The notes beneath the pieces are model-generated. The model saw only the letters and a program-made list of their open reading frames with translations, made no database searches and was not told the origin of the DNA. The position numbers were made by a program, and so were the translations under genes. Shown here piece by piece: positions 818-45,673 of a DNA stretch of 64,000 bases. Source of the DNA: Phoronis australis (taxonomy: Eukaryota; Animalia; Phoronida). How positions within the stretch are numbered: the first letter of the stretch is position 1; each line of letters opens with the position of its first letter. Location of the stretch: the NCBI GenBank assembly GCA_002633005.1, contig NMRA01000052.1, positions 1,105,235 through 1,169,234 of the forward strand. The letters are read 5' to 3'.

Positions 818-3800
818 TCACAGGTCTACCTCATTCATTGCGTCACCCCTACCACCAAGCATCTTCCTCAAGTCTACACCCGTTCTGTCCACCGCCATCA
901 GAGGTTTCATGGCAGCCATAAGACTGCTGTAGAGATTCGGGAATAGAACTTCTTGAGCAGCCAACAGCTGCTTCGTACGGTGTCGCTCTTTGGGTGCCTC
1001 AAAGCATGCCGGGCAATTTTCAGCAATCACTGGCAGGCAATTCTGAAACATCATGATTTCCAGTACAAACAAAAACACTGTTGACTTTAACTGCTCCAGA
1101 TTTAATTGGACTGTCAAACATAAAATTATGAATTTGAAAATGACCCCCGTATGCTTTAACAGTAACTTGAGTTGGCAGCTGATTCGGCAACAATTCAAGA
1201 ACAGATGAGCGTGGTAATGTTCTTAAACCTGGCGATGCTTCAGTTAAGAATTCAACATCGACAGTTAAACAGCAGTGGAATGCCCCAATAAGTAACAGTC
1301 AAGCAAACAAGTAACGCCAAAAGACAATTAAGTAAACTTTCAACAATTCAATCCAAAATATTGAAGACTCAAAAACGACCTACAAAAGACTAATTAACAA
1401 CACTGATACATGACTAATACAAACCTGCTCAGCAAAACTTCGCAAATCTTTTTCTCGCACATAAACAAAAGGCCTGATAACTCGCAGATCGCCTTCCCTG
1501 AAATAGACAATGATTACAACCTTTAATTCCCAACCCGCAGATATAACAAATCAAGCATTGAAACTGAGTTACAACCAACCAAAACCAAAAACCATAACAT
1601 AATTTTCAAAAGCCAACAATTACCTCGTAAGCATTCAATACAATACTTACTCCACAGTGTAATTTGCTTTCATCGTCCTCAGTGCACCGTTGTGAAACAC
1701 GGACATCAGAAAGCTACAAAAATCAACAGTAGCCATTACTAATTCGAATGCAAAATTCTCACCACAAAGCAATGTCAGAGCCGCCAGTTGATTCGCTCAC
1801 TTGGCCTTCACTCAGCCCAGTCAATTGGCCAAGACACCTGTGTGGTTTGAGAGTCAGACGTACTGTAGTCATTGGCAAAAATCAAGTGTTCTGGACAGTT
1901 GTCCATACTAACCCGGCATATATTAGGAGAGTGAATCTAGTGTAGACAAAGTAAAATGTACAAATACATACAATCACCTCATGTCAAAGAGTACAACATA
2001 TCTGCTTGATCAAACCCTGAGGTCTTGAACGAGTTCTCAGTCTGGAGACACTAAATCAGCAGAGTTTCTTTTAAGTTACTCCTGGAACAAGTTAGGTTAA
2101 ACGGTGGCGTGGAAGCTATTTGCATTGGGGCAACTTGACAAAAGTGTGACAACTTACCATGACGTAGTGTTACTTGCTTTAGGGTAACTTGCCCCAGCAC
2201 AACTTGTAGTGTGGACGGAAACCTGCTGACAAAGCTCTGTGCCTGCTCGGTTTCAGATCAATTGAAGCACCATATTTGCTACAAGGCAAAGGGATTGTGG
2301 TGTGGTGTGGACGCTCAGCTGATCGGGCACAAGTTGCTCTACAGCTAGTAGTTCTAAGGCAACTTGTAGTGTGGATATGACTCATAATTCGCATTTCATC
2401 CTTGACTGCACTAACACCTCATAATGTCTCACCTTTCAGTCAGGTCATCCAGGTGCTGACCCATGGCAAGTACATTGTAGCCCTCGCGACGTGCGCAGGC
2501 GTAAATCCGGCCACGCTTCATGCGGCTACAGAAGCTACAAATGGAGGCGCATCCATCAGGCAAGTTGGAGGCCGTGTCCAGAATACCTACAAGAGTGACT
2601 GCATATGTGGGAAACTGTCTTGCCCATAGTCACATGTCATTGGAACCTGAACAGACCTACTCTGACAATGAGTCGGCATAAGATAACAACGTTATCACTG
2701 AGGCTAATCAAAAGTCTAGTAATTACCCAAAACAGGCAGTGCACCAATGTGGCAGCATCTGTAACTAATAAGGAAATGAAATTTCTTATTTTCCACAAAT
2801 ATTTCAAAATTAAGACATGGCTAGAATAAAAGCAAACTGACTTGTCTTTTAATTTATGTCATGAAAATGGTCAGGTGTGTGACCTTTGACTCTTTAGCTT
2901 TCAACTCGGATCAGTTAGTTATCACTTTCTATCCTCTCATTGTTAAATGGCCATTTGACCAACAAGTGTCATCTGGCAAAATTCAGGCTGTACGCTGTGT
3001 CCTCAGTTTTGTCCTTCAGGACTGGTACTTCGTGTGGTGAAGTTGCACTTATTGTTTACCCTGATTTCCAGAGTTATTTGAAATTTTAAGCTAAAGGCTT
3101 GAGAGCTTCACCGTGTAAATTTGAGTATTAATTCTGAGTGATTAAGACTATACATAGTAACTAGTGTACTTGAAAACAAAGCCTTGTTCCCGAGAGTGAG
3201 TCTAATGAAAAAACCTTTCTTCATCACAGTGACACCCAGCTGTAGCTGAGAAGACCGACATAAAGGCGATGCATATGGAGAATCTACTACACCAGAGCGT
3301 ATTAGGAAGTCTTTCAAGTATTTAGTAACTCGGGGACGTTCACAACACTTACACTGCTCTTCATAAAAATATGGCACACTGAGGCTAGCTGTGTATTGTT
3401 TCAGCGGACTAGGATCATATGACGAGGTCTGTGGGTCCACCGTCACAGCGCCAAGTTGAAATTCAATGCCCTGAAATACAAACATATTTTCTTGATTACT
3501 TAGCTCACTGTATCCCTAGAGCTGTTCTGCTCCAGCACAGCTCTCTGAACCACTCAGCATTAGAAACTGCCCATTTCATGGCACCTTGAACTTAATCGAC
3601 AGATCTGTACAATTCCTGCTGCCATCAAGACACTCGTTTACCAGCCAGATAACTTTACTTTATGTTCATGCTGACTTTGAACACAGCAGTTAGTTAACAT
3701 GACATTCCTCTGACTAAAAGCTTTTTGCAGAAACCAGGTAGTTTATGCCACATGACTAACGGTTGGGTCTACCAAGACCTCCAGCGTGCACGTGCCTATT

Positions 3801-6800
3801 CACCTATGTAAACTACGTGCATGCCTGTGTACCTTATAAGAACTTCAAGAACTCACCTTGCTCTTACAGTAGAACTGGTACTGCTTCAAGCAATGCAACA
3901 GAGAGAGTGAGTCCTTCCCTCCAGACAGACAGACCAATACTCGGTCTCCGTTATGAATCATCGAGTACTCTTCCAGGGCTTCCACTGTCGGCTTGAAAAT
4001 CTTTTTAGGAGGTGAGCACCATTTAGTCCTCCGCACACGATTTAGTTTACCACCGCCTTTGTTTGGCACAGATAGTACATTCACCTCCTCAACAGCATTA
4101 GTATACTCTGAATGTCTTGAGATCATTCCTGGATGTACATCACAACTAAAACAGTAACTGTAATCTTGCGCCTGCTCAAGAGCAGAATTACTCAAGCCTT
4201 CTGACTGGTTGCCAGATAAATCTTGGTGAGCCAATGAATTGCAGGTCTGATGTTGCCCATCTGCAGAACCATTAGCAATGCAACTTGCTGCAGTCTGGGG
4301 GGACATACTCAACTCTGCATATGCGTTCGGTAAAGCATCAGCTTCTCGTGAAGAATGCACAGTACTCTTGCTTTTGTTCTCTTCACTTCCTATTGCAGCA
4401 CCAGAACTCATCACAGACACAGGCTCATCAGGTTGCTGACATATGTTATCACTTTGTAGATCATGCTGATTCACAGTAATATCCTTATTGCACTTTTCTG
4501 CATCCATTTCGTTTTCCGCACTTTTGCTGCTAATAGTAACACCAGTCACCCTGCTCTCGTACACTCTTCCTTTTCCCACAAATAAATCCGGAGGAGTGAA
4601 TGGTGGTTGGTGTTTGACAGGTGCACTGTCAGCTGGGTTCTGTAAATAGTCACGTGCTTCACTGGGCAGAAGAAACCAACGAATCGACTGTGCACTGGAG
4701 TCGAATAAAAGTGTCTGGTCTGCAAGCTGAACTCGAACTTTGCTCGCTTCGTTAAAAACATTAATAGCCATTTCCAGACATTCCTGAAAATTCAAATAAT
4801 TGAATATTACACATTACAAAAATAACAAGGAGCTGACCCTTCCGTAGCAAGGATTATGTCACACACTAAAAATATCTAAAATATAGTATTAGATAACTTG
4901 AGAAAAACATTCGACACTCTAGCCTTTCCAAAACCCACACATAAGTTGGGCAACAAAATAAAACGATAATCTATGGGACACTAATATCACGCAGATGACA
5001 TAAAAAGATAATGAACAAAAATAAAACACGTGCTCTATGTCAAAAACTCCTTAATCACCCATGCATAACTAAGAAGTTAATTACCACTTTGGAAAACTGG
5101 CAAATAATAATTTTACATTTTTTATTTAAAGTTTGGGACTTAAGAAGACCTCAAGTATGCATGTGACTATTCGTGTAATAAGAATTGCTAATTAACATAA
5201 GAGATTGAGGCAGAAATACGTTTAGAGGATGACATGCTTTTATTTTAACCTATTTTTGAAGATTCGAAATTTTTCCGTTGCACAACTATCCACTGGTTTG
5301 GGACTAACTGCGAAAATCCCAAAACGGATCTCCAGCTTTTCACCAACAAATGGACATGGCAGGAGAAGTGAAGAAAATGAAAAATAAAGATTTTGGTCTT
5401 CAGGCTTAAACACAAGTACATGCACTGTTGCTTCAATTTGTTACCTTCAAGCTCTGTGGGAGGGGTCCTTTCATGGGTGCTTGTGGCTCAGGAAAGGTCA
5501 TATGACCAGAAGCGTAGCTGATGGAGCCCAGCCACTTCCTGTCCTTGAACACCTGATGGTGTCGATGGCGCCACTCTCCTGTCTCCGGATTGAAAATGTA
5601 CTGAAATGAAACAAAGCTGCCATGGTAAAGTAATGCGAGACAATCGTGAACCAAAAAAAGAATTGAATATACACCAAGTAAAGAACTATGAAGAGAAAAT
5701 ATGGTACAAGCCAAAAGTGTTCAGACAAAATGATCCAAATTACCCCACAACGGCAGCTGGGTCTAAGCCGAATTTTATCGTCAGAGTGGTCTTCCCTCAT
5801 GTTTGACAATGAAGAGGAATGACAACGAAAGTTAAAAAGGTGACTTAAGCCATTCTGTAATAGATTTTTGTCGCCCAAATAGTTATTGCCAGTCATTTTT
5901 GCTGTTAAAGAAATTACATATCATTACGGAAAATGGCATTTTGTCTGATTACCTTTGTCTTGTAATGTACGTTATCCATTTTAAGTGCTACTGTAATAGC
6001 TTCCTTGCACATTGCAGAGCAGTGTGAATCACAGATCACTGCTGGCCATGATTACATAATCACGTCCACTTCTAGAAACTATTCCGAGATCTAAAGGCAA
6101 GCTTGAGCGATACAGCTTTTTTTTAATGATTTTCCAATGCTGAATTATATACAATTTTATGTTACGGTGACGGTGACCAATAAGAGCAACTCATGGTTAC
6201 CGTAGTTACTTGATCCTATAAGATACTCCCGTTAAGGTAGCCACACACTATGAAGAATTGTTTGCACGTACTTAGTGTGCAGGCTGTATTGAGTTTTGGA
6301 CCTAAACTGGCACAGAATTGGCTGCATTTTCCGAAGCTGAGGACTTCTGTCAAGTTTACTAATGCTTGACCCGAGGCCCAAATATAACCACGTGTGTGCA
6401 ACCAATTACTCGTGTGTGCGTACTCTCTCCTGTAGTACAACTAGCCATGTGACATGCCAGCTGATAACACTAAGATCTGGTAGCAGCGCTGCCTCCAGAG
6501 TAGCACCATGCGTGGACAAACTGTGCAGTTTAGCAATGGACACACAAAGATTTGGACGCAGCAGTTGCTGCACTGCGAACCATTACCAGGGCTAGCATTC
6601 AACAAACTTCAGCCACCACTCCTTGTAATATACGACTACCACTACAGAAGCACATAAAGCCAAACCCATACAACACCGACCTGAGGTAACATTTTCCAGC
6701 CATGTTCAGCCACAAGCTTGACAGCTGTCAGAACAAAATCCGCGGTCTCGTCACTCATGAAGAATGGCAGGTTTAGCCGTACAAAACCTGGTCTGAAATT

Positions 6801-9800
6801 TCAATAATACATCCTGTTAAATAAAAGATTACTCTCACACACTTGTATAGAAGTTCCTATAGACGCTTCAAACATGATACAGGAAACACTTATAAGTACC
6901 AGAAATAACAACAGATAATGTGGCAAATGACATAAGACCAAAAACAATACAAATCGATCATATTTTTTTAAGAGTAGGAATTCAGCATCTGTATAACTTT
7001 TTGGCATTTTATCTACGAAATCCAACATGCAAAGAAACATCATAATGAAAAGAGCTAATTCAGTATACAGCTCCCACTTTGCTACCATGGCAACTTTTGA
7101 AGACCATACCATTTTTACCCTACCAAATGAAATGATTAATTTTCCCTGAAGAATAATTTCAGTTGATCAACGTTACACAATTCAGACTTAAACAAAAATT
7201 ACACAAAAGCTTTATACTAAACCAAACTATTTGACAAAAAGATTGGGAGGCAGACATAGAACTTCTTTTACCATTCTTCCACACTATTTATAATTTTTTG
7301 ACTAGTGGTTTCTTAAAATAGAAGACAAATTCCAACTACTAAACAAAGTCCACTTGGCTAGCTAGTTACCTCAAAATTTCTGTCTCTGAGTACTCTCTGT
7401 ATCGTCTGAGGTGAGTACGATCTAGTCTACTGTCTTCTGCTAAGATAGTCTCAATCTGTTCGGAGAGCTCTTCGTCAATTCCAAGTAGATCCTGTAATGT
7501 AGAGACACTCCACAAATAATGAAAATAACCTGAATTTGAGTCAACACATTTTCTTCAGAAATTACCTCTTTCCGCCATCTTTTTACAAAATTCAGTATTA
7601 GTAATCAATATATTAAGCTGATGTCTTTCTAAACCGCTCTGAGGTGGTGGTGCGTTACAACTATTATTAAAATCTCTTGGTCTGTTTATACCGACCTCTT
7701 GTCTATTTACATTGTCACGACGTTTTGGTTGGTCTATTCCCCGGCAATCGTCGGGTGTTCCTGCGTTCTTAGAAAATGTATAATCCAAAAATCACACAAT
7801 CATAAGAATACCACATATCCATACCTGTTCTTCTAAGAACGCATCAACACCTGACGATGGCCAGAGAATAGACCGACCAAAATGTCGCGACAATGTAAAT
7901 AGACAAGAGGTCGGTGTAAATAGACCAAGAGATTTTAATAATAGTTGTAACATATTAAGCTGTATTTTGCCTTGCTTAGCTGGATAAAAACAAAATTGAA
8001 TTAGGCCTTTTACTCAAATAAAATCAGTCTAATATTCCCTAACATAGCAGGCTTCCATTTGCATTACCAATAAAACCGAAAGAATTGATGACTCAAGAAA
8101 ATACTTCATAATTTATTGGGATTATCCAACCCTAAAATATTCAATTCGAAATTAGAGGATGTACAAAATGCTGGTAACTAGACTTGGTAATGGATATAGA
8201 ATCCTATCATGGTAAAGACTATAATGAGAGTAAAAGCCTTAATTCAATTTTCATTTTCAGTCGGCTAAACAAAGCGAAACGCAGCTTTAACTATCCAGTC
8301 ACTATATTTTGAAACATTCACATCTGATAATCATCATTAACTACACGTTTATGCAAAACAATCAAACGGTGAAAACCATAGCAACAACACTCGTGAGGTG
8401 GCAAATATCTGCTTGCACTGTTCACTTATTTCTGTGGAGCACTAACAGCTGCTTTTCACCATAAACTACTTTTCACTACGTACCTGTGCGTAGGGGCCAG
8501 CGCAGGCGCAACCTCCTCTGGTCTGGATACCAAACATGTCGTTGAGAAGAGAGCTGACAAAGTTGTGATGGAGGAAGAGACCGTTGGCGCCGTGACGCAC
8601 CAAGAATGAGAAGACAGGCAGGCGAGGGGTGGTGGTGTTCCCTAGCAGGATGAGATTGGAGCACCCACACCAGGCTTGCAACGCTCGCCTGAGGACAAAC
8701 TCATGCTATTATTATAACTTTTTGGTTTTCACACATCCAAGGTTCACAATCAACTTCCATCAATTCAAATTAAATTTTCAATTTACTAAATCTATTACTT
8801 TCCAACGATTTCAGACAAAATTCATTAAACACACGGCAATGATGAATGAATTTTGCAACTACACAATGATTTCCATTACAACTTAATTTTCAGAGTTTAA
8901 TTAACTATGATTATTTTAGTTTCAAATTATTAAAAAATTGAAATTATTGCAATGTCCATTCACACACCAAACAGATAAGATGGTAGATAACAGGTAACAC
9001 ATTAATTGTACCTACACACCCCTACATTTACATCATCCCATGCTTTCATTAATGCAATTTTCTACTCATTTCCCATCCGAGGTGATAGCAGCTAATTATT
9101 CGCCTGCTATAAATTTCACACAAGTCTTCATTCATAGTTGGGTGCCCCCTCCGCCACACCTCCACCTACCTACACAGTCTGTCCTCCCTCTGCATTATCA
9201 CCTGTGACGACACTGCCTCCTTCAACTGAAACACCAAACCCGCCCTCACAGACTCCACAATGGCTGGAGTACCCCCTTCCTCTCTCATCTCAACCTCCTG
9301 CAGGTAACGATGGCCATTCCTCCGCACCTGGCAAATTTTTTAGGACAAAATAATAATAATTAACGAAATAAAAAATAAATGAAAATATGTTGTTAATTTT
9401 ACAATTGCAGGACTTAAAACCAAAAAACGCCAAGGCTAAGGTAAAAGAAACAATAAGGAGCATATTGTGAGTGCATATGTACCAACAACTCCCATAATTC
9501 AACACTACGAGTAGCCATCCAATCATCTTTCAGCAGCAGACATGTTGCTTAGTAAGAGGCTAGAGAGGTCACATGTGTGACTTTGCCAAACTCAGATGAT
9601 ACTGGAGTCAGCGAACACACAACAGCTGCATCAACTGTTAATTTTAGAAACCATTTATGAACTACTTACATAAAAGACAGAGCCTCCTCCACAGTTGGAT
9701 GGTACGGGGTTCTTGAAAAGAGATTTCTTGGCTACCAGCACACCTATTCAGAAATAAACTGAATGTTTCACCAAGACCAAACACCGGCACATCATTCATC

Positions 9801-12800
9801 TTATCACATATACACACGATTCTTCAGTAAGATAAGACAAGTGTTCAAGTGGAGGAAAGAAAGAGCTTGTGAGAGGCATTGAGAAAGTAGACAGAGGGGA
9901 AGGACACTACAAGGAAAGAGGGCAGGCGAAGACAAGGGAGAAGATAGAGTGAGGATGGAAAAAGGAGATATGAGGGAACGAGTTGAAAGGGAGAGTGTGA
10001 GAAAAAAAAAATAAGGGCTTGCACAACAAACACTATTAGCAATAAAACAGCATCAATTGATCAATCAGTAACAGAGCGGATACAAAAAAAAGTTTGGAAC
10101 ACCAAGTGAAAATGAAATTCAGAGCCTTCATTTTTAAGGGTAAATTTCATATCATACACGGAACACTGCCTGTACCGAACAAGCTTAATGAGTTACTATC
10201 ATGGGTGACATATTCCACCCCATGGGCCAGGTTGTACAGTAACTTCAATTCTATCCAGATTCTCTACATTGATGAGTAGGGCGCATACCAAAACTAATCG
10301 GCAAAGTTTCCCCATCAACTCCATTTACAGCAAAAATGATGGCAAGACGAGATCAGATTTCACCTGGTCAACATGCTAGCTTCTTCACAGTCGTCATATC
10401 TGGGATCTAATCTTGATATGAACCATACTTGATGATTCTCATGATTCTAACCTGGAGTTTGCACTCCACCCACAAATTTGTGGGTGGAAATGAAGACAGC
10501 ATCCTTAGACATGTCACCGGCCACCTCAGAGACGGGATGCATGTTGATCTGGATGTGGGGTCCTGCAGTGGCATAGTCCCAGAAGGCTAGCGCCCCGTAT
10601 TGGTGGAGCATGGAACTAATGGCATTGACATCAGACAGGATTCCTGTTACATTTGATGCCGCTGAGAAACATCCAATAAGCTGCTTGTTGGATGACTTCC
10701 ACTTCTGGAAATACAAAGTAAATCAACATGAAAATCACTAAGGCACAGAAAAGAAACACATTGGAGACGGCTTAACGTCATATCCTCGGTTTCGACGTAA
10801 ATTATGATAACAAGCAGGATATTCCATTAAGCGGGTTCCAATTTGTCACAGATTGTAATTACTGGACTTGCTTAGTGTTGAGAGGAGTGAGACAGCTAAA
10901 GAGGAAATGACGGTCCCCCCTGGCACAGAGTTCTGATAAGGCAAATGAGCAGCAGATGAATTGGGTTGGTTTATAGATGGAAATGCAAAGGTAATTAGAG
11001 GGTGACTTTTAATGATGATACACATGGTGGCAATAAATCGTGACATTATGCCAGTTATTTTCAAGCTATTAACAGAAATGATTAAATTTTTGACAGAACA
11101 TAATAACCAGGATATTCTATTATCTGGTATGACATTAAGTGGGCTCCACTTTATTAGGTATGCACTATAATACTTTCTGAAAATATCTCTGCTTAAACAC
11201 AGCTTAAGGCACTGCTCCGCTACCCTCCATTATGGTGAGGACAACACCGGAGACCGAGGGGTGTCTGGTCAACTGTTACAATTATCAGTTGTTGCGTGAC
11301 AATCAAAAACACAAATTCATTTCGTCCACCGCTTCGAAATTTCCCAAAAAAATTGATATGTTACATCACCATTAAATGAACAACTAATCAAACACACCAA
11401 CTTCCCATTACACTAGTCAAACTGCAACAGTTGACTTCTCCAGGTTTTGTGCAACCCCACACAGATGAATTCACGCGAAAAATTGGGAAGTGAACAACAA
11501 TTGCCACTCTGTACACTAAACCTCACAAAATTCTGACCGTCGTAAGTGCGATGTAGACCACAATGTACCACTCTTCATATACCCAGTAACACAATACATG
11601 CATGACCTAAGACAATTATGTCCATTTACCGTCAACTCCGTTTCAAGATGTAACATGTCAATAAGTCCGTCTGGTGTCTGCGATATTCTCACCACCTGTG
11701 CACCCAGCTCTCTCCATGGCAACAAGTTGGAATGGTGCTCGTATGGTCCCACAAACACTACCTACATGGATGGATGATATGGATGCAAAAACTTAAGTTG
11801 AAGCTGAATGGCATCACTTGCACATATACACAGGCAACTGCAAAACCGTACTCCTGATTAGCAAATTTATGAATCATTTCAACCAACATTAAATTACAGA
11901 CAGCAGAAATAGGTCTTCTGTATCTTTGATTATTTGCCATCGAATTTTGTATCTGGGCTCAAAATGTGCTTTTGATCGCGCGAACATGTGTCGTGGGTAT
12001 GCGTGCACATGCGTAGGTGTGTGTGTGTGAATTGAATGAGTCAATTGACATATTCTCCTTTATTTGTACAGATATAAGTCACAATAAACTATTAGAGTAA
12101 AAAAAATAAATAAGTCACAATCTTAGACTTAACATCTAGCTTACAGGCTTGTAATTAGCAAAAATTGGTGATGCAAAATTTAGAGATTACAAAAATATTT
12201 CGATACTACTATTGTGGCAGTTGAAATGCTTTTTTCTCACATGCAGCATGGTTAAGAAAGTGTAACACTAAAACCTAATGACAACTTGACGGTCACTAGG
12301 GTCTCCTTACTTACCGGCGACATTTTTAAGTGCATGGCGTGAATAAGTTTGTGTACTGTTGCTGTGCAACCACTTCCTGCAAAGATGACAGCATCGTGCT
12401 CACTGGCGTTGACAGCATTACGAATAATGTCCCTGAAAAGGAAAACCACCTGATCCATACATGCAATTCAGGATGTTAAAAGTGGAATTTGGATTGAACA
12501 AAGACAACAAATAAAAATGAAAAAGCTAAACCTGAAGTTCTTGGAAGTTGTTTCTAACAAATTGGAGTGCCTTTAAGACACTTTTATACATCCTCCAAGT
12601 TTATTGATAGGTACAGAAGCAAGACATATTGAAGACTTGAAGATGTGTTTATGGGATTGGAGACCTGCTTATTAATACAAAGTAAACAGCCACTCAAAAG
12701 ATTCATTTTTTTTTCTGAACTGCAAAAAAACAAGTTTCCCCTTAAAATTGAATTTCCAAAGTCACCTAAGTCGTGACACAACTGAAACGATATTGTGACT

Positions 12801-15450
12801 TCGGGCAATATTATTGATAAACAAAGCTAACCCACCTGGCTTCATGCCTGTACAGTGACGTCTGTAAAGAAGTTACAGTGGTAGTTGTATGAGTATTGCC
12901 ATAGTTGGTCAGAACCTGCTCCCGGATGTAGTCCTCGATGAAGCCAAGTGACTGGCCTGAAGCAGTGTAATCACAGTACACCACTGAAAATTATTGATTA
13001 ATAAAAGCATTATATTACTTCTACTACAAGGAGTCCAACAACACCATGACTCGAAGGTCAGACCATACACAAAAGTAGAGGAACATCACTAACACTGTCC
13101 AGACCTATGAGGCCTGTGAGGGTGACCTAGGATAATTGTGACAAATGACTAAACTGTGCCAAATGAGGAAACAATGCCCACCCTTGTTGTTGACATATCC
13201 CATTTCCCTCAGGCTCTGTTTGTTTACACAACTGGTAACTCGACCCAGGGTGATGACACCATCTGTATGCCAGGCCACAGACAGTGCTGTTCCTCAAAGG
13301 AACAGTTTATGAATGTAGGTGTATCTTGGGAAAATGTGAGGCGATTTTGACCAAAAACATGCCGTTGTGGTTGACATAAGGTAATTTACAAATAACTTTC
13401 AAAATTGAATGAGAAAAATGCAACAGTTGAAATAACCAAAAGTTCAGGCACATTCCACTCATGGACATCAGACGGCTTATCACTGCTGTAAATCAAATGT
13501 CAAGCTGAAATGTACACACAGCAGCTACATACTTGTAATGTGGCCCAGTAACCTACCCAACTTGCTGACACAGGACTTCAGATACTGAGCAGAATGCCCA
13601 CCAATTTCTTATTAGAGGGAGACCTGAGAGATCTGATAACTCGGGTCTTTTTCCTTTTATGATTGAAACCTGGGAGCCACGCATATTGACAAGATCCCCA
13701 GAGGCGTGTACAAAAAATTGCGGGTAGTTGGTACTTTTTCGGCAAGTTTTACGGGACCGCACGGGGGCCAGGCTCCCTGTCGGCCGCAGTTTCTATTGAA
13801 AATATTAACAAGGACTACATATGTAATAACATCTTCCTTTCTCGTGGTGAGCTGATGAGACCACGTTAATGACAATGATGAGACTAACAGTAACAATGAC
13901 AGTAGTGAGGAGGTGCCTGGTGACAGCCACTGAGCGAATCGACGTCGAGGACACCAAGTAGGGAGAACAACGTTTTTTAAATTCTTTTTACAATACCCAT
14001 GTGTCATACGTTTTTGAAAAGCCCTTGGTGTGAGAAATGAAATGGTGCAAAAATCAGAAAAATTGGATGAGCGGTTGACAAGAAAATGGCCATTGACACG
14101 CGGCGATTATGCGTAAAATATCTGCCTTTTTACATAATTTCGTAAAAAATAAAAGAATATACATGTGCTGCGCATAAAAAGATTCGACTCATTGAGACAA
14201 CATGGTGGTGTGTATTATATGAAATTTGGATCGATTTCTACAGAGATATTGCTGTTTAAGTGTGTTATTATAGCATATAGAACAGGCTCATCATGTTTGG
14301 TGAAAACAATGGATTACACACCTTAACAGGTAAAGAGCAAAGACACCACATCAGCTCAGAAATAAATAAATCTGAGCTAGGAGGAAATTTCACATCAAAT
14401 CACAATAACACATTGATGGATTTGAGGGGGGCAAATATCTTACGGGTAAAATCCTGCTTAATACTCTGCCCTGCCCCCCCCCCTCCTATCTAAAAATCCT
14501 AGATCTGCCTCTGAATACTACTACATGGGCAACACATCATTGCCTGACAGTGATAGGGGGCTGGGGAGGCTATAGTTCCACCACTTTTTTCAGTGCTGGG
14601 TGCCACCCATGTACTATTAGATCGTATCATGGCAAAAAACATCAGAATGTAAACAAAAGACCATTTGGGAAAACAAATCACTCTTAACATGAAGGATTTC
14701 ATCATTTACACAACAAAAACTTNCCTTGACTTCGAGAAAACAACTTGAGGAGATGCGCACGCATCTAAACTACATCCTGTCCAAATTTCATGTTTGTATT
14801 TGAGAGTATAGTGCTCTTTTGGATAGGAGGAACAAGAGGTACTTTTTCGAAAGTTGATCGCATGGCGGAAAATTGTGCGCTAAAAAAGCTTACAAAAAAT
14901 GACTTATCAGCGATAATTTGAGACAAAAAGATTACAAACTTACAAATAAAGACTAAGGTAACGATTTACAACACAAAATTGTCTTATAGTTAAGTTGAAG
15001 TCTGAAATCAGTTAAATTACCGACGTGGGTTTTACACGGAGGCAGATATGGAGCACCGTGACCTACTTTTTGATTGTCCTCCCTACACCAAGGGTGTGTT
15101 CAAACTTTAGTAACGTAGCTAAAATCTAACCAAAGTCATGTGTTCTCATTTAAAACACACGACAATATCTCACAATATTTCGCGAAGTATTGCTTTTGGC
15201 GAGGTCCCAGTGTTACCGGAAGTCGGGAGGCAGGACAGCCACAGGAGGTGGAGGTGGAATATTGTGAATATGTTCGGTCACCTTTTCGCAATCCATACGG
15301 GCTGGAAAACACTTTTTCCTTTCCTATGATGTTCCCTTCAATGTACTTGATAAGCTCGTCCGTGGAGTCGCAAACTGAAGTTGAATTTTGAGCAACCTTC
15401 TCGGGAAAGTCGTAAAACTTTCTTTTAGCGTGCGGCAGACATGTGGCCAT
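818..15450 (-). CDS. Cysteine desulfurase-like (aminotransferase class V) / TtcA-like tRNA thiolase fusion protein, 17 coding exons, ~1068 aa
   Basis: Phase-consistent GT-AG exons: 15282-15450, 12836-12983, 12315-12432, 11630-11761, 10452-10704, 9670-9743, 9170-9327, 8484-8688, 7370-7491, 6681-6792, 5445-5600, 3857-4783, 3353-3470, 2433-2586, 1651-1713, 1425-1497, 818-1042 (sum 3207 nt, open to TGA). N-half motifs: YCDYTASG, YGNTHT, EHHSNLLPW, SAASNVTG, WDYA, STHKFVGG (PLP lysine), EEGGTP, RGGCACAGPY, PGFVRLN. C-half motifs: GDRVLVCLSGGKDS, CSFCSRMKRG, MGQHLDD, VIRPFVYVREKD, CPAC. Confidence 0.92.
7610..7962. mobile_element. Palindromic Penelope-like insertion with degenerate hammerhead-like core (intron 8 of fusion gene)
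   Basis: ~120-bp inverted arms (7654-7774 / 7830-7951), a 33-bp one-sided extension, an 11-bp flanking direct repeat ATATTAAGCTG (7610-7620, 7952-7962), and CTGACGA at 7851. Confidence 0.6.
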
Positions 15451-15926
15451 TTTACGACTACAACGATGCCTGTGTCTGAAAACAAAACTAATTTCGAATC
15501 CCTGGATAAACAGTCACTAGGTGGCGAAACCGTCTCGTCTACGGACAGCCCGGCGGGCTCACCCAGCTCGGCTGCTGGTGTCAAATACATGCGGAAATTT
15601 ATAAGGTTACTGTGCCGGGTTGCATGAAACAGTCCCAAATAGGGACTCAACTAAGTTCCCTAAGCTTTTTTCATATTTTTATTCTTTAGGCACAGATGTA
15701 ATTTTTTTCTATAACTTTATCTTTATTGTGAGCTCTTCTTCACTATGATACATTTTTTAATAATATAACTAAAAACTGAGCCTTTAATTCAATCAAAACA
15801 GTCAGGGACTTGGTCCTTTAATTGAAGGCGTTGCACGAAAAGACCCCTACTTATTTAAAATAACATTGAGAATTCAATCTAGATTTCACTCTCGACTTGC
15901 ATCAAAGCCAAAAATTGTCATAGTAT

Positions 15927-16563: not shown

Positions 16564-16775
16564 NNNNNNNNNNNNNNNNNNNNNNNNNNNNNNNNNNNNN
16601 NNNNNNNNNNNNNNNNNNNNNNNNNNNNNNNNNNNNNNNNNNNNNNNNNNNNNNNNNNNNNNNNNNNNNNNNNNNNNNNNNNNNNNNNNNNNNNNNNNNN
16701 NNNNNNNNNNNNNNNNNNNNNNNNNNNNNNNNNNNNNNNNNNNNNNNNNNNNNNNNNNNNNNNNNNNNNNNNNNN
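16564..16775. other. Assembly gap (212 N)
   Basis: Run of N. Confidence 0.99.
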
Positions 16776-16954: not shown

Positions 16955-17690
16955 GTGTTGTAGCAAATAACCGATAGATGGTGCTAGATATAGTAAGTTC
17001 CCTGAAATGGCTACCGATTTCACAATGTGCGTGGCTAACGCTAAAGTGGACCAAGTTCAGAATGGCGTAGTTATAGACTAGAGTAATTGAGGGTCGTGAA
17101 AAGGATTTGTACGGATAGCCAGATGTCTGAGGAATGCAACGATACCAAAATCATTTATTTAGACCTACATTTAGTGGATTTATTTGGAATAAGTTACGGG
17201 TCCATTATATCCGACTAGTGCCCTTTTGGATAGGAGGAACAAGAGGTACTTTTTCGAAAGTTGATCGCATGGCGGAAAATCGTGCGCTAAAAAAAGCTTA
17301 CAAAAAATGACTTATCAGCGATAATTTGAGACAAAAAGATTACAAACTTACAAACAAAGACTAAGGTAACGATTTATAACACAAAATTGTCTTATAGTTA
17401 AGTTGAAGTCTGAAATCAGTTAAATCACCGACGTGGGTTTTACACGGAGGCAGATATGGAGCACCGTGACCTACTTTTTGATTGTCCTCCCTACACCAAG
17501 GGTGCGTTCAAACTTTAGTAACGTAGGACCTAGCTAAAATCTAACCAAAGTCATGTGTTCTCATTTAAAACACACGACAATATCTCACGTAATTTCGCGA
17601 CGTAATGCTTTTAGCGAGGTCCCAGTGTTACCGGAAGTCGGGAGGCAGGACAGCCACAGGAGGTGGGATATTGTGAATATGTTCGGTCAC

Positions 17691-17859
17691 CTTTTCGCAA
17701 TCCATAGGGGCTGGAAAACACTTTTTCCTTTCCTATGATGTTCCCTTCAATGTACTTGATGAGCTCGTCCGTGGAGTCGCAAACTGAAGTTGAATTTTGA
17801 GCAACCTTTTCGGGAAAGTCGTAAAACTTTCTTTTAGCGTGCGGCAAACATGTGGCCAT
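17691..17859 (-). CDS. Second copy of coding exon 1 of the desulfurase-TtcA fusion gene (likely alternate haplotype)
   Basis: Encodes the same 56 aa (MATCLPHAK...PYGLRK) with the same GT donor as 15282-15450. I see four nucleotide differences in the exon, all synonymous. Confidence 0.75.
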
Positions 17860-18018
17860 TTTACGACTACAACGATGCCTGTGTCTGAAAACAAAACTAA
17901 TTTCGAATCCCTGGATAAACAGTCACTAGGTGGCGAAACCGTCTCGTCTACGGACAGCCCGGCGGGCTCTCCCAGCTCGGCTGCTAGTGTCAAATACATG
18001 TGGAAATTTATAAGGTTA

Positions 18019-18439
18019 CTGTGCTGGGTTGCATGAAACAGTCCCAAATAGGGACTCAACTAAGTTTCCTAAGCTTTTTTCATATTTTTATTCTTTAGGC
18101 ACAGATGTAATATTTTTTTTCTTATCTTTATTGTGAGCTCTTCTTTTACTATGATACATTTTTTAATAATATAACTAAAAACTAAGCCTTTAATTCAATC
18201 AAAACAGTTAAGGTTTTGGTCCTTTAATTGAGGGCGTTGCACGAAAAGATCCCTACTTATTTAAAATAACATTAAGAATTCAATCTAGATTTCACTCTCG
18301 ACTTGCATCAAAGCCAAACATTGTAAGTAAAACAGCTGAGATAGGACAATCAGTGTTTCCACAAGCCCGCAAATACGCAGTAGATTTAGGGATCTTAGTT
18401 GAGTCCCTATTTGGGACTGTTTCATGCAACCGGGCACAG
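18019..18439. mobile_element. MITE with ~46-bp terminal inverted repeats, upstream of exon 1 (possibly PIF/Harbinger-like)
   Basis: ctgtgctgggttgcatgaaacagtcccaaatagggactcaactaag (18019-18064) is the reverse complement of 18394-18439 (two mismatches). The left TIR also occurs at ~15610-15655, where the element is interrupted by the LTR. Confidence 0.75.
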
Positions 18440-24400: not shown

Positions 24401-26127
24401 AAAATACTCTTACTGCTTTCAACAATGCACAATTCAATCCCACCTATCCAGTCGAGACCTATCTATGGGGGTGCATTTCACTCACTTGAAATTGCCCTTC
24501 TAAGACGAAGCACAGACATGAACTGTTCCGAACTCACTGGTTTAAAATTTTACCGTTCAAAAATTATTTGAACAGATGCGAATATGAGAAAACCGGACAA
24601 GCACAAAAAACTCCGGTCTGAAAACAGAATGCAGATCATCATACAACTCGTTCCATTCCACATCACTCACTTTTTGGCCTTGTACACATAGGCGCATCTC
24701 TTGCCAAGATAGAACTCCACCTCGTCACGCTTGGTCACTCCATCAATCCTGAGTAGCGCTGTGTTCTCGTGCTGGTTGCGAAGGCCTCTCTTGTAGCCGG
24801 TGAATACAGCCTTGCTGTAGAGTCTGAGGAGGAAGTTACAATACATTACACAAAGTGTGTCAATAAAGCCCAAACGTCTGTAAGAAAACTGGATCCTGTA
24901 CCATTTTAACGTTTGTCCTCGCCTTGCTTTTGACACGAATTTGACGTTACTTTTGGGTCTGGAAAGAACTGCGGGGCTTGGAATGACCAATGACAAAATA
25001 AGAGGAAAATTTTCCAGGTGACGTATTATTCCACAAATAAATAGGTGTGACAGAACTATTTTTTGTGTTGTAAAATTGAACTGAAGTAAACATTTTTGGA
25101 TGGATAAAGTCAAAGTAATGATAAAAAAAGAGACGAAAAATGAGGAAACTGGAAATCAAGAGAAAATCCTCTTAAAAGAAAAAAATTCCAAGCCCTGGAA
25201 ATGACACTTTGGTATTGCTCGTGGTCATGCAAAACACAAATCAAGTGGGTCGAATTCTATAGATGCAAGAACCTTGCTGAGGAAGCTAGTGTGATCAAGC
25301 GCTTCACTTGTAATACATGACAATGTTTCATGAAGTCTTGTGATTTGTGAAGTTCTTGCGTTTACCGAACGCACGCCTGGTCACAAGCAAAGGAGCAAGC
25401 TGAGACATGTTTTTACAAAATAACACGGCCTAAATCAAAAGTGACAGTTAGACAGGTTCTTAGCCAAATTAACATTTGGGAGGCACAGACGTAGTGGGGG
25501 ACAACGCAGTCTCCATCCTACACGCATATAAACATGGTGCTGTATCTTGTTTGAAAGGACTGAGTTCTGTCCACTTTACATACAAGACAAATGATGGAAA
25601 GATACCTAGATGCTCAACAAATGTAACACGTGTTTCTGTGAATTACCGGAATAATCAGGACCCAAAATGCCATTTCGCAACATGTTTGGGTTTTTGCTTA
25701 GGCAGAAACCTGCCCCCAAGTCCCCAACAAATAGGACTGCGTGAAAAACAAGGCCGGAAGCAACAAAATAACCGTCAAGTCATATAGTGTCAATCATATG
25801 ACACTCATAATACCATATGCATTTAATTCATTAGTTGTTTTTGGTCTTGAGAAACAATAAACATGGGGTGCAGGCAGCAAGAAAGTGAAACAGAGCTGAG
25901 GCACAATTTGGGAAAAAAGGCAATTCCCAGCATTTTTTTCACTTTCAACTGGAATTTTGAGTTTGTTCAATTTATCACTTGTTGAATAAGGAAAACCAGG
26001 GTCTCTACAGCTAAAAAGCGTCAATAAACTCCAACAACTTTTCAGTCAACTCAAATTCGTTTCATCAATGGCACCCTCACCTCCCAGACTTTTTAGCAGG
26101 GTTTCCCTGAACTGCAGACTCGGCCAT
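21419..26127 (-). CDS. RPL35A: 60S ribosomal protein L35a (eL33), 4 coding exons, 123 aa
   Basis: Exons 26081-26127 ([15 protein letters not shown]), 24671-24823 ([25 protein letters not shown]...[13 protein letters not shown]), 23789-23936 (...[21 protein letters not shown]...), 21419-21442 (MLYPSRI*). Phases are consistent; AATAAA on the minus strand at ~21377. Confidence 0.96.
22002..23232 (+). mobile_element. Non-autonomous interspersed repeat, possibly Helentron/HINE-like, in the last RPL35A intron
   Basis: Starts aaacaagag; GAT/GAC-rich simple segments; repeated 'gccatctt' motifs; terminal 13-bp hairpin tacttggcgaaat-tt-atttcgccaagta (23201-23228). Class assignment is tentative. Confidence 0.4.
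23491..23732. mobile_element. hAT-like MITE, copy 1 (CAGGGCTT...AAGCCCTG type ends)
   Basis: Homologous to 24972-25197 (shared 'aatgaccaatgacaaaa...ttccaggtga...ttccacaaataaa'); ends ccaagccctg. Confidence 0.55.
24972..25197. mobile_element. hAT-like MITE, copy 2
   Basis: Termini cggggcttggaat ... attccaagccctg; homologous to 23491-23732. Confidence 0.55.
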
Positions 26128-26871: not shown

Positions 26872-28860
26872 GCTGCCGATTTTTGTAAAAGAATGTTGGT
26901 CTCAATGACAATGTTCCGTTTGCACTCTTAAAGCTGATGAATAGGATGAAATTTTTTTAAGAATTTGTTTATTTACTCAAGAAAATGCATCGGTGTAACC
27001 CACCAGCGTAGTGGAAAGCAATTGTCGAGCAGCCAGGGTCAGGGATGAAATCAAACGGAAATGTTTTGTAAAAATACATTGTATCTCGTGACATCGTAAT
27101 AGCAACTAGGCGATTTTGAGGCTTGAATTAAAAAATGGAGTCACTACCGACACACTGATAATCCTTGCTGTTCTCGACAAAATAACTGGCTTCACCTAAA
27201 ATCCCGTGCAAGTTTGGTAAATTCATGTGACAAGTACGTTCATTTCAGAAGAGGTATTTTTATCCATCAATATCGAACAATTTAACGAGACATCGAAAGA
27301 TTTTAAATTTATTGAAACCAGGTAAATGCAATGAGTATTATAGCAACGGGATATTGAAGGAAAATAACAAAAGAACAAAACACACAACAATAAAACGTTT
27401 CAGTTATTCTACTGATATCTACCACTTTAAAGAAAGATGGCGATAGAAAGGAAGTGGCAACAGGAGTGCTGGGAAACATTGGCAAATTGAATATTTTCAG
27501 CTTTATTAGTTTTTACCAACTAACAATACATAAAAATGTATTTTAATTTATAAAAGTGAGGAAAAGAAAACATGATATTTGACTATAAAACAGCAAAGCA
27601 ATAATGCTCTTTTGTACTATGAAATCAGAAATACAGCTTAATGGAGCATGCGCATTAATGATAGTTACCGAATAAACAAATATCGAGAAATTCTCTAGTG
27701 GGACGTCTCCGAAATGTACTGTGAATAAGTATTTGATTTCATTTTTATAAGGTATGGATTTTCTGTTTCTGTTTTTGTTTTTCTTGATTAATGGTATTCT
27801 GTGTATTCTGTGTGGAAGAGAGAGGTTTTTGTTGTAATTTCCGAGTCTAATCCGCATCATCATGCGAATGAGAATGGAGCTGAAATTTGTATCAGATTAG
27901 CCATTAGGGCAGGCAATACGATACATCGCCCTGAATGCCGCAGGCATTCAAGGCCGATAGTACATTCCCATAAAAAGTTATTCATTTCAAAATTCTGCAA
28001 CTAAAATCGAATGAAATATGCATATAGGCACATGGAGTTATAGTTAACACATACCATGACTCTGGATACAATTTAGTCAGCACAACTTGAACATATCTGT
28101 CACGGGAGTTTCTCTTATCTGGTGCCACTTTGAGAAATTTTCGTGAAATCATGTTGACGAATAAGAAGTCTAAGGGACACAAATCTTACAAATTTCATGA
28201 GATATCTTCCCATGGTACTTTGCAAGTCTCACGCGCCAGCGTCATGCGCTTCACTCAGTCTCGCGCTATTGCCTAACTTACGTGACTCAGTTGAAATACT
28301 TTGTGGTTATTGAGCGTTCAGTGAAAAAGTTTACGGTGACCAAAAGTAGAGTTGGAATTCTTCGCCAAAGTCACCCTAATAATTCTCATAGCTATGCTTC
28401 ATCGAGTATATGTGTAGAAGTAGAAAGGACCACTGAAGAAAGTAAGCGCTTTTTTAAGTGATACCTGTAAGTGTAGAATGTATTTTTGATGAGGTGAAAA
28501 CTGTTAATTGGTGAGTGGATTTTGCTACCTGCCTGTTTAAAATACACGGGACGAAATTAATACAGAAAGCGATGGGAAGTATTGTAAACCCTAACTGGCC
28601 ATCCGAGGGGCTACGTGTTGCCTAGTATGAGATCAGACCAGGATGAGTTCATGCATAAGTCAATGGCAATGAGTGTTAAGCTGAGTATGGGACATTAAAA
28701 TTTGAAAATAACAGTTTTGGTGAGAGCTGGGTTATGGTTTTGTTATATACTAGTTTCTGTTTACCTGCTTTCTTCTGTTCTCTTGACTTCTTATATTCTT
28801 GCTGTCACCCATTTTCTTCTCTCTCTTAGTTGCTTTTTATGCCTTATCAGAGCTGCCCAA

Positions 28861-45500: not shown

Positions 45501-45673
45501 CATACGGGGCAGGTTAGAGTTATGCTCTTCGCCGGAATGTAACTTTCGAGGCAAGTCTCGCAGAATGTATGAAGACAAGGGAGAACTTTGGGGGAAATGT
45601 AGCGCTCCAAACAAATACCGCAACAAAGAAAGTGCTTTGTAATTTGTTTCACGACTGGAATGTTGTTCGCCAT
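42536..45673 (-). CDS. TRIM2/TRIM3-like TRIM-NHL E3 ubiquitin ligase (RING, two B-boxes, coiled coil, filamin, six NHL repeats), ~773 aa
   Basis: Exons 43505-45673 and 42536-42688. [32 protein letters not shown]; filamin [18 protein letters not shown]; NHL repeats (F..P.G...DS.N..VQVF); C-terminus [14 protein letters not shown] resembles TRIM2/3. An in-frame acceptor at 45697 means a longer N-terminus is possible. Confidence 0.9.

Follow-up and report, generated by a model that had tools for sequence, protein, structure and literature searches.

A predicted cysteine desulfurase-TtcA fusion gene in Phoronis australis, a further member of a known eukaryotic family and a candidate for 2-thiocytidine synthesis in tRNA

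Introduction

Bacterial TtcA (E. coli b1344; NCBIfam NF007972) is the tRNA-cytidine(32) 2-sulfurtransferase, in which cysteines C122 and C125 are essential and for which sulfur is provided in vitro by a cysteine/desulfurase system (PMC4081106). CTU1/CTU2 (Ncs6/Ncs2), NcsA and TtuA belong to the same PP-loop/Fe-S fold family as the C-terminal domain described here, and take their sulfur from a thiocarboxylated ubiquitin-like carrier. On the donor side, the group II desulfurases are described as dependent on a specific acceptor (SufE, CsdE, SufU) (PMC8931425). In the Moco sulfurase ABA3/MOCOS, a cytosolic eukaryotic protein, a SufS-like N-terminal domain is fused to a sulfur-receiving domain (PMC13653126, PMC8931425); this protein may serve as a works-like analogue, although its acceptor domain and product differ from those considered below.

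The closest described system is the 'IscS-TtcA' fusion of Aplysia californica (LOC101861551, 1177 aa), which came up in a blastp search that used E. coli TtcA as query (bioRxiv 10.64898/2026.09.27.754811, hereafter called the Aplysia preprint). The same preprint maps s2C32 by LC-MS/MS in Aplysia tRNA-Lys(UUU), whereas the E. coli substrates are tRNA-Arg and tRNA-Ser, and it proposes for the fusion the function that we favor below; the link between fusion and s2C is a co-occurrence in one species. An earlier note on the present DNA knew of no functional characterization of such a fusion, and the idea that the fusion is undescribed is overtaken by this 2026 preprint. The note had also held that s2C is not an established eukaryotic tRNA modification, which now needs the qualification that s2C has been reported in the tRNA of an animal, a single species. 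We describe here a gene of Phoronis australis that is a further member of this already known family, in an intact and ordinary copy.

Results

Structure of the gene

The window, i.e. the whole stretch of DNA analysed, comprises 64,000 nt, in which ARAGORN found no tRNA genes. The gene lies on its minus strand from 15450 to 818 and consists of 17 exons with 3207 nt coding for 1068 aa; all 16 introns are GT-AG and the sole stop is the last codon. The exon structure is based on splice signals and homology (tblastn, four homologues).

818..15450, minus strand: whole gene, encoding a SufS/CsdA-type domain, then a family-specific tail, a variable linker and a TtcA-type domain (exons homologue-guided)
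15450 and 818, minus strand: start ATG and end of the stop codon, respectively
15282..15450, minus strand: exon 1, aa 1-56, with the start codon and a short acidic/basic N-terminus
15450-15282, 12983-12836, 12432-12315, 11761-11630, minus strand: exons 1-4
10704-10452, 9743-9670, 9327-9170, 8688-8484, minus strand: exons 5-8
7491-7370, 6792-6681, 5600-5445, 4783-3857, minus strand: exons 9-12
3470-3353, 2586-2433, 1713-1651, 1497-1425, 1042-818, minus strand: exons 13-17

The predicted protein aligns end to end with proteins of Haliotis, Patella, Saccoglossus and Acropora (55-58% identity, ~1090 columns), and the gene model is therefore not a product of chance. An RKFY-like motif in the N-terminus encoded by exon 1 is also found in several animal homologues. 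The main motifs are STHK (aa 262-265), RGGCACA (408-414), SGGKDS (836-841), CSFC (914-917), GQHLDD (940-945) and CPAC (1004-1007). The earlier note had read here a continuous 17-exon ORF with these motifs except GQHLDD, joining a class-V PLP desulfurase-type domain and a TtcA-type PP-loop domain in one polypeptide; the ORF is borne out, free of internal stops, and both predicted domains fall within its single frame.

The N-terminal desulfurase domain

6681..12983, minus strand: PLP-dependent class-V core, group II (SufS/CsdA-like), exons 2-10, aa 57-497 (Pfam and SufS matches)
10477..10479, minus strand: K265 of STHK, predicted PLP-binding lysine (alignment)
8502..8510, minus strand: C411-x-C413 of RGGCACA, with C413 the predicted persulfide cysteine (alignment)
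4631..5600, minus strand: desulfurase tail, aa 498-600, encoded by exon 11 and the beginning of exon 12, common to stand-alone bacterial desulfurases of this family

Pfam Aminotran_5 matches exons 4 and 5, the best desulfurase match of the homologues is SufS, and the domain fits the SufS fold with a TM score of about 0.8 over the target. K265 is in register with K226 of E. coli SufS and K206 of IscS (Lys in 125 of 126 fusions), and C413 with SufS C364 and CsdA C358; both C411 and C413 are Cys in 126/126 fusions. The His, Asp and Arg of SufS/CsdA are in register as well, and the RxGxxCA motif, short loop, PLP lysine and SufS fold that define group II are all present. A group I (IscS/NifS) identity, for which an SSGSAC motif and a long catalytic loop would be expected, was considered and rejected: in three close homologues the IscS model gives 18 bits or less, compared with 111-131 bits for SufS, and the alignment shows no loop insertion. 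We therefore assign the N-terminal domain, from its predicted residues, to the SufS/CsdA type (group II) and not to IscS. SufS or CsdA proper is a narrower class, the curated cut-offs of which are not reached by the same three homologues (NCBIfam TIGR01979, 111-131 bits vs 475; TIGR03392, 57-64 bits vs 494).

The domain departs from E. coli SufS and CsdA in several respects: identity is only 23-26%, there is an extra invariant Cys two residues N-terminal of the catalytic one, position 203 (Gln in SufS/IscS) is T/A/S in the fusion family, and a family tail of ~100 aa follows. Closer to it is a family of stand-alone bacterial desulfurases of 555-590 aa (RGGCSCAGPY), with 41-51% identity; the tail motif RWFLLP at aa 584 has its RWF in nine of ten of these. 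Desulfurase activity with a persulfide on the loop cysteine would be expected from the active-site residues.

In the Aplysia protein Lys301, Cys448, Cys450 and Cys588 match K265, C411, C413 and C551 by spacing (147/149 and 138 residues, vs 146/148 and 138 here). The preprint calls the Aplysia domain IscS and was unable to assign its catalytic cysteine, whereas our alignments place the domain in group II, with Cys450 (C413) as the probable catalytic residue.

The C-terminal TtcA-type domain

818..4018, minus strand: TtcA-type domain, aa ~805-1045, encoded from the last part of exon 12 through exon 17 (alignment and tree)
3908..3925, minus strand: SGGKDS, aa 836-841, predicted ATP site, aligned with SGGKDS of E. 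coli TtcA
2528..2539, minus strand: CSFC (C914, C917), predicted [4Fe-4S] ligands (alignment)
1004..1015, minus strand: CPAC (C1004, C1007), second CxxC, predicted third cluster ligand (alignment)

The domain matches E. coli TtcA with 32% identity over 234 aa (E 5e-40) and E. coli TilS with 24.5% (E 3e-6). The PP-loop, two CxxC, HxDD and RP motifs are all in register with TtcA. SGGKDS is conserved in 124-126 of 126 fusions at each position; C914 and C917 align with TtcA C122 and C125 (kept in 125/126 and 126/126), and C1004 and C1007 with C210 and C213 of CNLC 210-213 (122/126 each), so that the PP-loop and the cysteines for three cluster ligands are in place as in TtcA. The third essential cysteine of TtcA, numbered Cys222 in the original paper (PMC4081106), would correspond to C213 by an offset of nine residues. 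Only two CxxC motifs are conserved, as in TtcA.

Three close homologues score 190-201 bits with the NCBIfam TtcA model, 52-55 with TilS, 40-45 with TtuA and at most 33 with NcsA; a TilS, TtuA or NcsA identity was thus set aside, the TtcA model being ahead by about 140 bits, although the NF007972 cut-off of 272 bits is not reached. ESM Atlas features point to bacterial ATP_bind_3/TtcA clusters only. Among solved structures NcsA and TtuA come nearest in fold (18-21% identity), but these cannot rank TtcA because no TtcA entry is among the PDB search results. The proposal that the domain is of TtcA rather than CTU1/TilS type thus agrees with the profile scores and the E. coli alignments, the trees having contained no CTU1 sequence. 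In E. coli, IscS and IscU serve TtcA as sulfur source, whereas the domain here is fused to its presumed sulfur donor.

Linker and likeness to the Aplysia fusion

The two domains are separated by a linker of ~200 aa that is unconserved (4-8% identity to homologues per 50-aa block); a third CxxC within it (CFSC, aa 760) has Cys in 0/126 homologues. Homologue lengths vary from 884 to 1664 aa, and a two-domain structure model (pTM 0.66) gives the linker low confidence. The Aplysia protein has a 405-aa linker, likewise unconserved, and the same domain order, SGGKDS, CSFC and CPAC. The two genes are probably orthologous, judging from the residue spacing and from 67-81% domain identity to mollusc members; a SufS/CsdA-like domain followed by a TtcA-like domain in one ORF, with all motifs conserved, is what characterizes the family.

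Distribution and phylogeny

Active-site residues of both domains are near-invariant across the 126 fusions, and the desulfurase is present in 84 of the 86 representatives of at least 800 aa that have this TtcA subtype. The fusion, which the earlier note had regarded as an animal feature, occurs in animals from sponges to amphioxus (with one member found in Caenorhabditis brenneri) and also in alveolates, a stramenopile, Euglena, Rhodelphis and Vermistella; the family is thus, by its sequences, far wider than the molluscs. No vertebrate, fungal or plant protein is named among the best 120 homologue rows, a kind of list that says nothing on absence, and the Aplysia preprint mentions bird matches without data. 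Stand-alone desulfurase paralogues of about 710-770 aa occur in the same animal groups as the fusions, and also in Aplysia (Aplysia preprint). In Temnothorax ants both domains have degenerated together.

The tree of the TtcA domain was made without TilS (which had a branch length of 10 and was misplaced in a quick 61-row tree) and without three long rows. The Phoronis protein nests among animal fusions, with Lingula and Haliotis (99/90; Aplysia not in the tree), and the subfamily is split from E. coli TtcA on a separate long branch (100/100) that takes in stand-alone TtcA genes of sulfur-oxidising Pseudomonadota. In the unconstrained tree this bacterial clade falls inside the eukaryotic rows (n=35 labelled eukaryote, 11 of these without an organism name and one labelled from a truncated name); because eukaryote monophyly is still not rejected (p-AU 0.395), the tree does not fix a transfer from eukaryote to bacterium.

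Unfused bacterial relatives

Stand-alone TtcA-like proteins of ~250 aa from Thermithiobacillus, Acidithiobacillus, Thiothrix, Thiobacillus, Hydrogenovibrio and other sulfur-oxidising Pseudomonadota are 48-60% identical to the Phoronis domain (80/80 loci), share with it the CxxCxRMKRG and ENCPAC motifs and lie on the same side of the tree, but unlike it are unfused. Within up to 10 kb, none of 80 loci with this TtcA type had a family desulfurase, and the converse search likewise gave 0/80 (many loci being <20 kb). Thirty genomes, from loci picked among the 80 for long contigs and including many incomplete MAGs, contained no true family desulfurase (six weak matches, at most 95 bits) and no canonical TtcA above the cut-off. 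In a sample of 301 genomes this type occurred in 4, a canonical-range match in 126 and both in none. A conserved bacterial neighbourhood was accordingly dropped as support for coupling. Since the halves are not paired in the bacteria searched, this TtcA type can work without the family donor. From these counts the nearest relatives in bacteria seem to stand in for ttcA, a point in favor of the s2C32 reading below, and the union of the two halves seems to be a feature of eukaryotes.

Discussion

We think it likely, from the residues conserved in both domains, that the gene encodes a eukaryotic enzyme that makes s2C32 in cytosolic tRNA and carries its sulfur donor in the same chain. By analogy with SufS, PLP on K265 would strip sulfur from cysteine to leave a persulfide on C413; as in TtcA, the second domain would adenylate C32 with ATP bound at SGGKDS. 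The sulfur would be taken up by the free iron of a [4Fe-4S] cluster, with C914, C917 and one cysteine of CPAC as ligands, and passed from there to the activated base. The tethered TtcA domain might thus be the acceptor for the group II desulfurase, much as the fused C-terminal domain is in ABA3; no MOSC domain was found in seven proteins scanned. The length of the linker and its lack of conservation point to a flexible tether, in which case sulfur could also pass from one subunit of a dimer to the other. The Aplysia substrate, together with the acidic N-termini, would place the protein in the cytosol. Our literature search found no knock-out or enzyme assay for any family member.

Alternatively, the TtcA domain may make s2C32 while the desulfurase builds or repairs the oxygen-sensitive Fe-S cluster, releases sulfide or serves other acceptors, fusion then giving only co-expression. 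The variable linker (cleavage at which is also raised in the Aplysia preprint), the stand-alone paralogues and the lack of a family desulfurase in all 30 bacterial genomes with the stand-alone type would fit this, but we judge it unlikely: the halves stay fused in nearly all long representatives across eukaryotic supergroups, they degenerate jointly in Temnothorax, and the tether would provide the specific acceptor that group II enzymes are said to need.

The target could also differ from C32, given the sub-threshold TtcA scores and the separate long branch, and the enzyme might thiolate or selenate another tRNA position or another RNA, or have an organelle role. NcsA and TtuA, the nearest solved folds, act on U34 and T54, and selenocysteine is a further substrate of SufS-type enzymes (PDB entry names). 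We rate this departure from s2C32 as quite improbable in view of the lead of TtcA in the profile scores (the PDB results holding no TtcA), the TtcA-like pair of CxxC motifs, the presence of s2C32 in an animal with the fusion gene (Aplysia) and a score of only 33-37 bits with the selenocysteine lyase model SclA in three homologues. An artefactual gene model, or a copy not expressed as one protein, is scarcely credible despite two AATAAA hexamers in intron 11 (5244, 5126), because exon 12 alone (3857..4783, minus strand; 927 nt, aa 550-858) spans desulfurase tail, linker, fusion point and SGGKDS in one frame and the fusion requires no splice; moreover, intron 11 is AT-rich and lies inside the conserved tail, the full-length colinear homologues include transcript-derived records, and the Aplysia preprint reports even RNA-seq coverage of all exons of the orthologue.

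A much bolder extension, which we regard as speculative and probably wrong in some part, is an ancient self-contained cytosolic relay in most eukaryotic supergroups, independent of NFS1 and URM1, in which a CxC-loop group II desulfurase charges the tethered TtcA cluster and feeds s2C32, a modification overlooked in studies of model yeast and vertebrates; in sulfur-oxidising Pseudomonadota this TtcA subtype, having lost its donor, would have taken the place of canonical ttcA, perhaps after a transfer from a eukaryote, and would run there on free sulfide.

Both the family and the proposed function have been put forward in the Aplysia preprint, and the proposal is worth testing; what is added here is a modest gain, namely the group II donor with C413, the placement in a TtcA subfamily, no sign of bacterial pairing and a wider family range. 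The close unfused bacterial relatives of the TtcA half offer easy test enzymes. If the assignment is right, s2C synthesis in these organisms would be a one-gene pathway, simple to knock out and to reconstitute, and an anticodon-loop modification long thought to be prokaryotic would be common in invertebrates and protists.

Structure of the fusion gene

The desulfurase-TtcA fusion gene is real and intact, and the earlier note, made from sequence alone, had read it correctly. Exons were seen by six-frame translation, and their boundaries were set by a splice-site listing and by tblastn with four homologues. The spliced model of 3207 nt encodes 1068 aa with a sole, terminal stop and GT-AG ends at all 16 introns, which bears out the claimed continuous 17-exon reading frame; every motif named in that note is present.

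818-15450, minus strand: fusion gene, ATG at 15450, stop ending at 818 (splice signals and homology)
3857-4783, minus strand: exon 12, a single open exon of 927 nt
aa 262 of the fusion protein: STHK
aa 408: RGGCACA
aa 836: SGGKDS
aa 914: CSFC
aa 1004: CPAC

Proteins of Haliotis, Patella, Mercenaria, Saccoglossus, and Acropora align end to end with the window protein at 55-58% identity, and, domain by domain, Lingula (72% and 80%) and also Owenia come closest. Exon 12 opens inside the conserved desulfurase tail (RWFLLP, aa 584; RWF is present in 9/10 stand-alone bacterial desulfurases of this family), continues through an unconserved linker of ~200 aa (4-8% identity per block to homologues), and carries SGGKDS. 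Since all three lie in one open exon, the join between the domains needs no splice. The genomic evidence argues strongly for one gene rather than two.

A second copy of exon 1, together with sequence upstream of it and a stretch of intron 1 (17216-18324 vs 14809-15918, 95% identical), sits just past a 212-N gap at 16564-16775. The exon copies show four differences, all silent, the donor site is intact in the duplicate, and no duplicates of other fusion-gene exons were found in the window. The second copy is most likely an uncollapsed allele of the assembly; less probably, it is a short tandem duplication giving an alternative first exon.

N-terminal desulfurase domain

Pfam Aminotran_5 was matched by exons 4 and 5, as had been expected. 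In profile-model scoring of both domains, close homologues stood in for the window protein. For their desulfurase domain SufS models scored best (111-131 bits) and IscS reached at most 18 bits, all far under the cut-offs. SufS proteins were the top solved-structure matches by sequence and by fold, the fold search using the AlphaFold model of a sponge homologue, P0084 (pLDDT 81.5, pTM 0.66). In an alignment with the E. coli enzymes, K265, H154, D232, and R465 correspond to SufS K226, H123, D200, and R379, and C413 aligns with the catalytic C364 of SufS and with CsdA C358. IscS C328 falls under C411 in the same alignment, and because of this two-column ambiguity C413 is the probable, not the proven, catalytic cysteine site.

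We collected 126 fusions from the protein homologues P0001-P0378 (at least 800 aa, >250 and >200 bits on two profiles of our own). C411, C413, R408, H264, and R465 are invariant among them, K265 is found in 125/126, and the position of SufS Gln203 is T, A, or S. The accessible part of a preprint on the Aplysia fusion (bioRxiv 10.64898/2026.09.27.754811) likens the N-terminal domain to IscS and offers Cys448, Cys450, and Cys588 as candidates, the catalytic cysteine not being singled out there; their spacing equates them with C411, C413, and C551 of the window protein. C551 is retained in just 51 of the 126 fusions.

Among the matches listed, the nearest prokaryotic relatives of this half are stand-alone proteins of ~555-590 aa (41-51% identity). 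Unfused SufS-like proteins with a CxC loop (P0036, P0018, P0033, and others; loci L081-L160) make up a family with bacterial members of 555-590 aa and several paralogues of 710-770 aa in echinoderms and hemichordates.

C-terminal TtcA-type domain and its bacterial relatives

The expected TtcA match held in rank and fell short in score: NCBIfam TtcA was by far the best model for the homologues (190-201 bits; TilS 52-55, TtuA 40-45, NcsA at most 33), below its cut-off of 272. E. coli TtcA matches the window domain at 32% identity over 234 aa (E 5e-40), and the four CxxC cysteines align with its C122, C125, C210, and C213, being retained in 125, 126, 122, and 122 of the 126 fusions. According to PMC4081106, Cys122, Cys125, and Cys222 of E. 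coli TtcA are essential and are proposed [4Fe-4S] ligands, and cysteine plus IscS supply its sulfur in vitro; we infer that Cys222 of that paper is the last cysteine of the second CxxC. In structure prediction (pLDDT 92) the domain adopts the NcsA/TtuA/TilS fold (TM ~0.75, 15-21% identity), and PDB searches gave no TtcA entry among the matches.

In a TtcA-domain tree of 57 rows (TilS and three long rows excluded), the window domain groups with Lingula and Haliotis (99/90); taken with the domain identities, this makes the source animal probably a lophotrochozoan. A 100/100 split sets the fused domains and bacterial TtcA-like proteins apart from six canonical TtcA, and the bacterial rows, 16 in all, cluster as one (95/99). 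Eukaryote monophyly of the domain was not rejected (p-AU 0.395). The closest prokaryotic relatives among the matches listed, ~250-aa proteins mostly of sulfur-oxidising Pseudomonadota (48-60% identity), are much nearer to the eukaryotic fused domain than is E. coli-type TtcA. The bacterial loci L001-L080 encode an unfused TtcA subtype with ENCPAC, mostly in sulfur-oxidising Gamma- and Betaproteobacteria and Acidithiobacillia.

None of 30 genomes carrying a bacterial TtcA-like gene had a TtcA above the cut-off. Among 301 Pseudomonadota genomes 132 matched, four at 320 bits or more (the centre genome one of them), 126 at 151-220 bits (classed by score, not individually), and two weakly; none of the 301 had both types. 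The ENCPAC-type genes thus appear to replace canonical ttcA, which lends indirect support to the same activity for the fused domain and canonical TtcA.

Pairing of the domains and spread of the family

No desulfurase of any detectable kind was found near the bacterial TtcA-like genes (80 loci, 1.23 Mb), no TtcA-like gene near the stand-alone desulfurases (80 metagenomic loci, 0.76 Mb), and the family desulfurase was absent from all 30 searched genomes with a bacterial TtcA-like gene. In contrast to the bacterial loci, of 86 long representatives with this TtcA subtype, 84 have the desulfurase as well.

Of 30 representatives, 11 bear organism names: Perkinsus, Amoebophrya, Chromera, Besnoitia, Stentor, Chrysoparadoxa, Euglena, Rhodelphis, Vermistella, Caenorhabditis brenneri, and Temnothorax. 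Named animal fusions among the matches listed come from sponges, cnidarians, flatworms, molluscs, annelids, brachiopods, nemerteans, arthropods, echinoderms, hemichordates, tunicates, and amphioxus. Judged by these protist and animal homologues, the fusion is a broad eukaryotic family and no animal peculiarity.

In the P0334 cluster (Temnothorax ants) and P0354 both domains are degenerate (PP-loop altered, CPAC lost, desulfurase loop changed), which suggests that the ant fusions are decayed or non-catalytic. The alveolate fusions P0268, P0332, P0295, and P0260 have an insertion, labelled C2H2 zinc finger in UniRef, inside the desulfurase domain; the Perkinsus fusion gave a weak Pfam zf-met match (E 6e-4, under cut-off).

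Other features of the window

7654-7951: inverted-repeat element, arms 82% identical, within intron 8 of the fusion gene
24667-25155, minus strand: ribosomal protein L35a exon (Pfam Ribosomal_L35Ae, E 3.5e-20)
28699-37351, plus strand: coiled-coil gene of IQCG/DRC9-type look, from frames, without Pfam match
43475-45697, minus strand: long exon of a TRIM2/TRIM3-like protein (RING, B-box, filamin, NHL)
60209-60540: inverted-repeat element, arms 94% identical

In the human genome, too, RPL35A and IQCG adjoin. Both inverted-repeat elements are probably small non-autonomous transposons.

Proposed mechanism

From the observed architecture and residues, we consider it quite likely that the protein is an s2C32 synthase with a built-in sulfur donor. 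A PLP-dependent step would take sulfur from cysteine to form a persulfide on C413, the TtcA-type domain would adenylate C32 with ATP, and a [4Fe-4S] cluster on three cysteines would take the sulfur and hand it over to the base. The CTU1 route uses URM1 (PMC5372739), whereas the fused-donor design would not need it. A short loop and a dedicated acceptor partner characterise group II desulfurases (PMC8931425), and ABA3, the cytosolic Moco sulfurase, offers a precedent, its SufS-like domain being joined to the acceptor (PMC13653126). It is unlikely that the desulfurase domain serves only the cluster or other acceptors, and a target other than C32 is less probable still; that the fusion is an artefact is scarcely credible.

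No functional study of the fusion was found in the literature, judging from listings. The Aplysia preprint, dated 28 Sep 2026, already describes the fusion and proposes the same job, and the window copy, a synthase with built-in donor on our preferred reading, is a further member of that described family. The fusion is biologically interesting, yet it had been described and proposed for the same function before.
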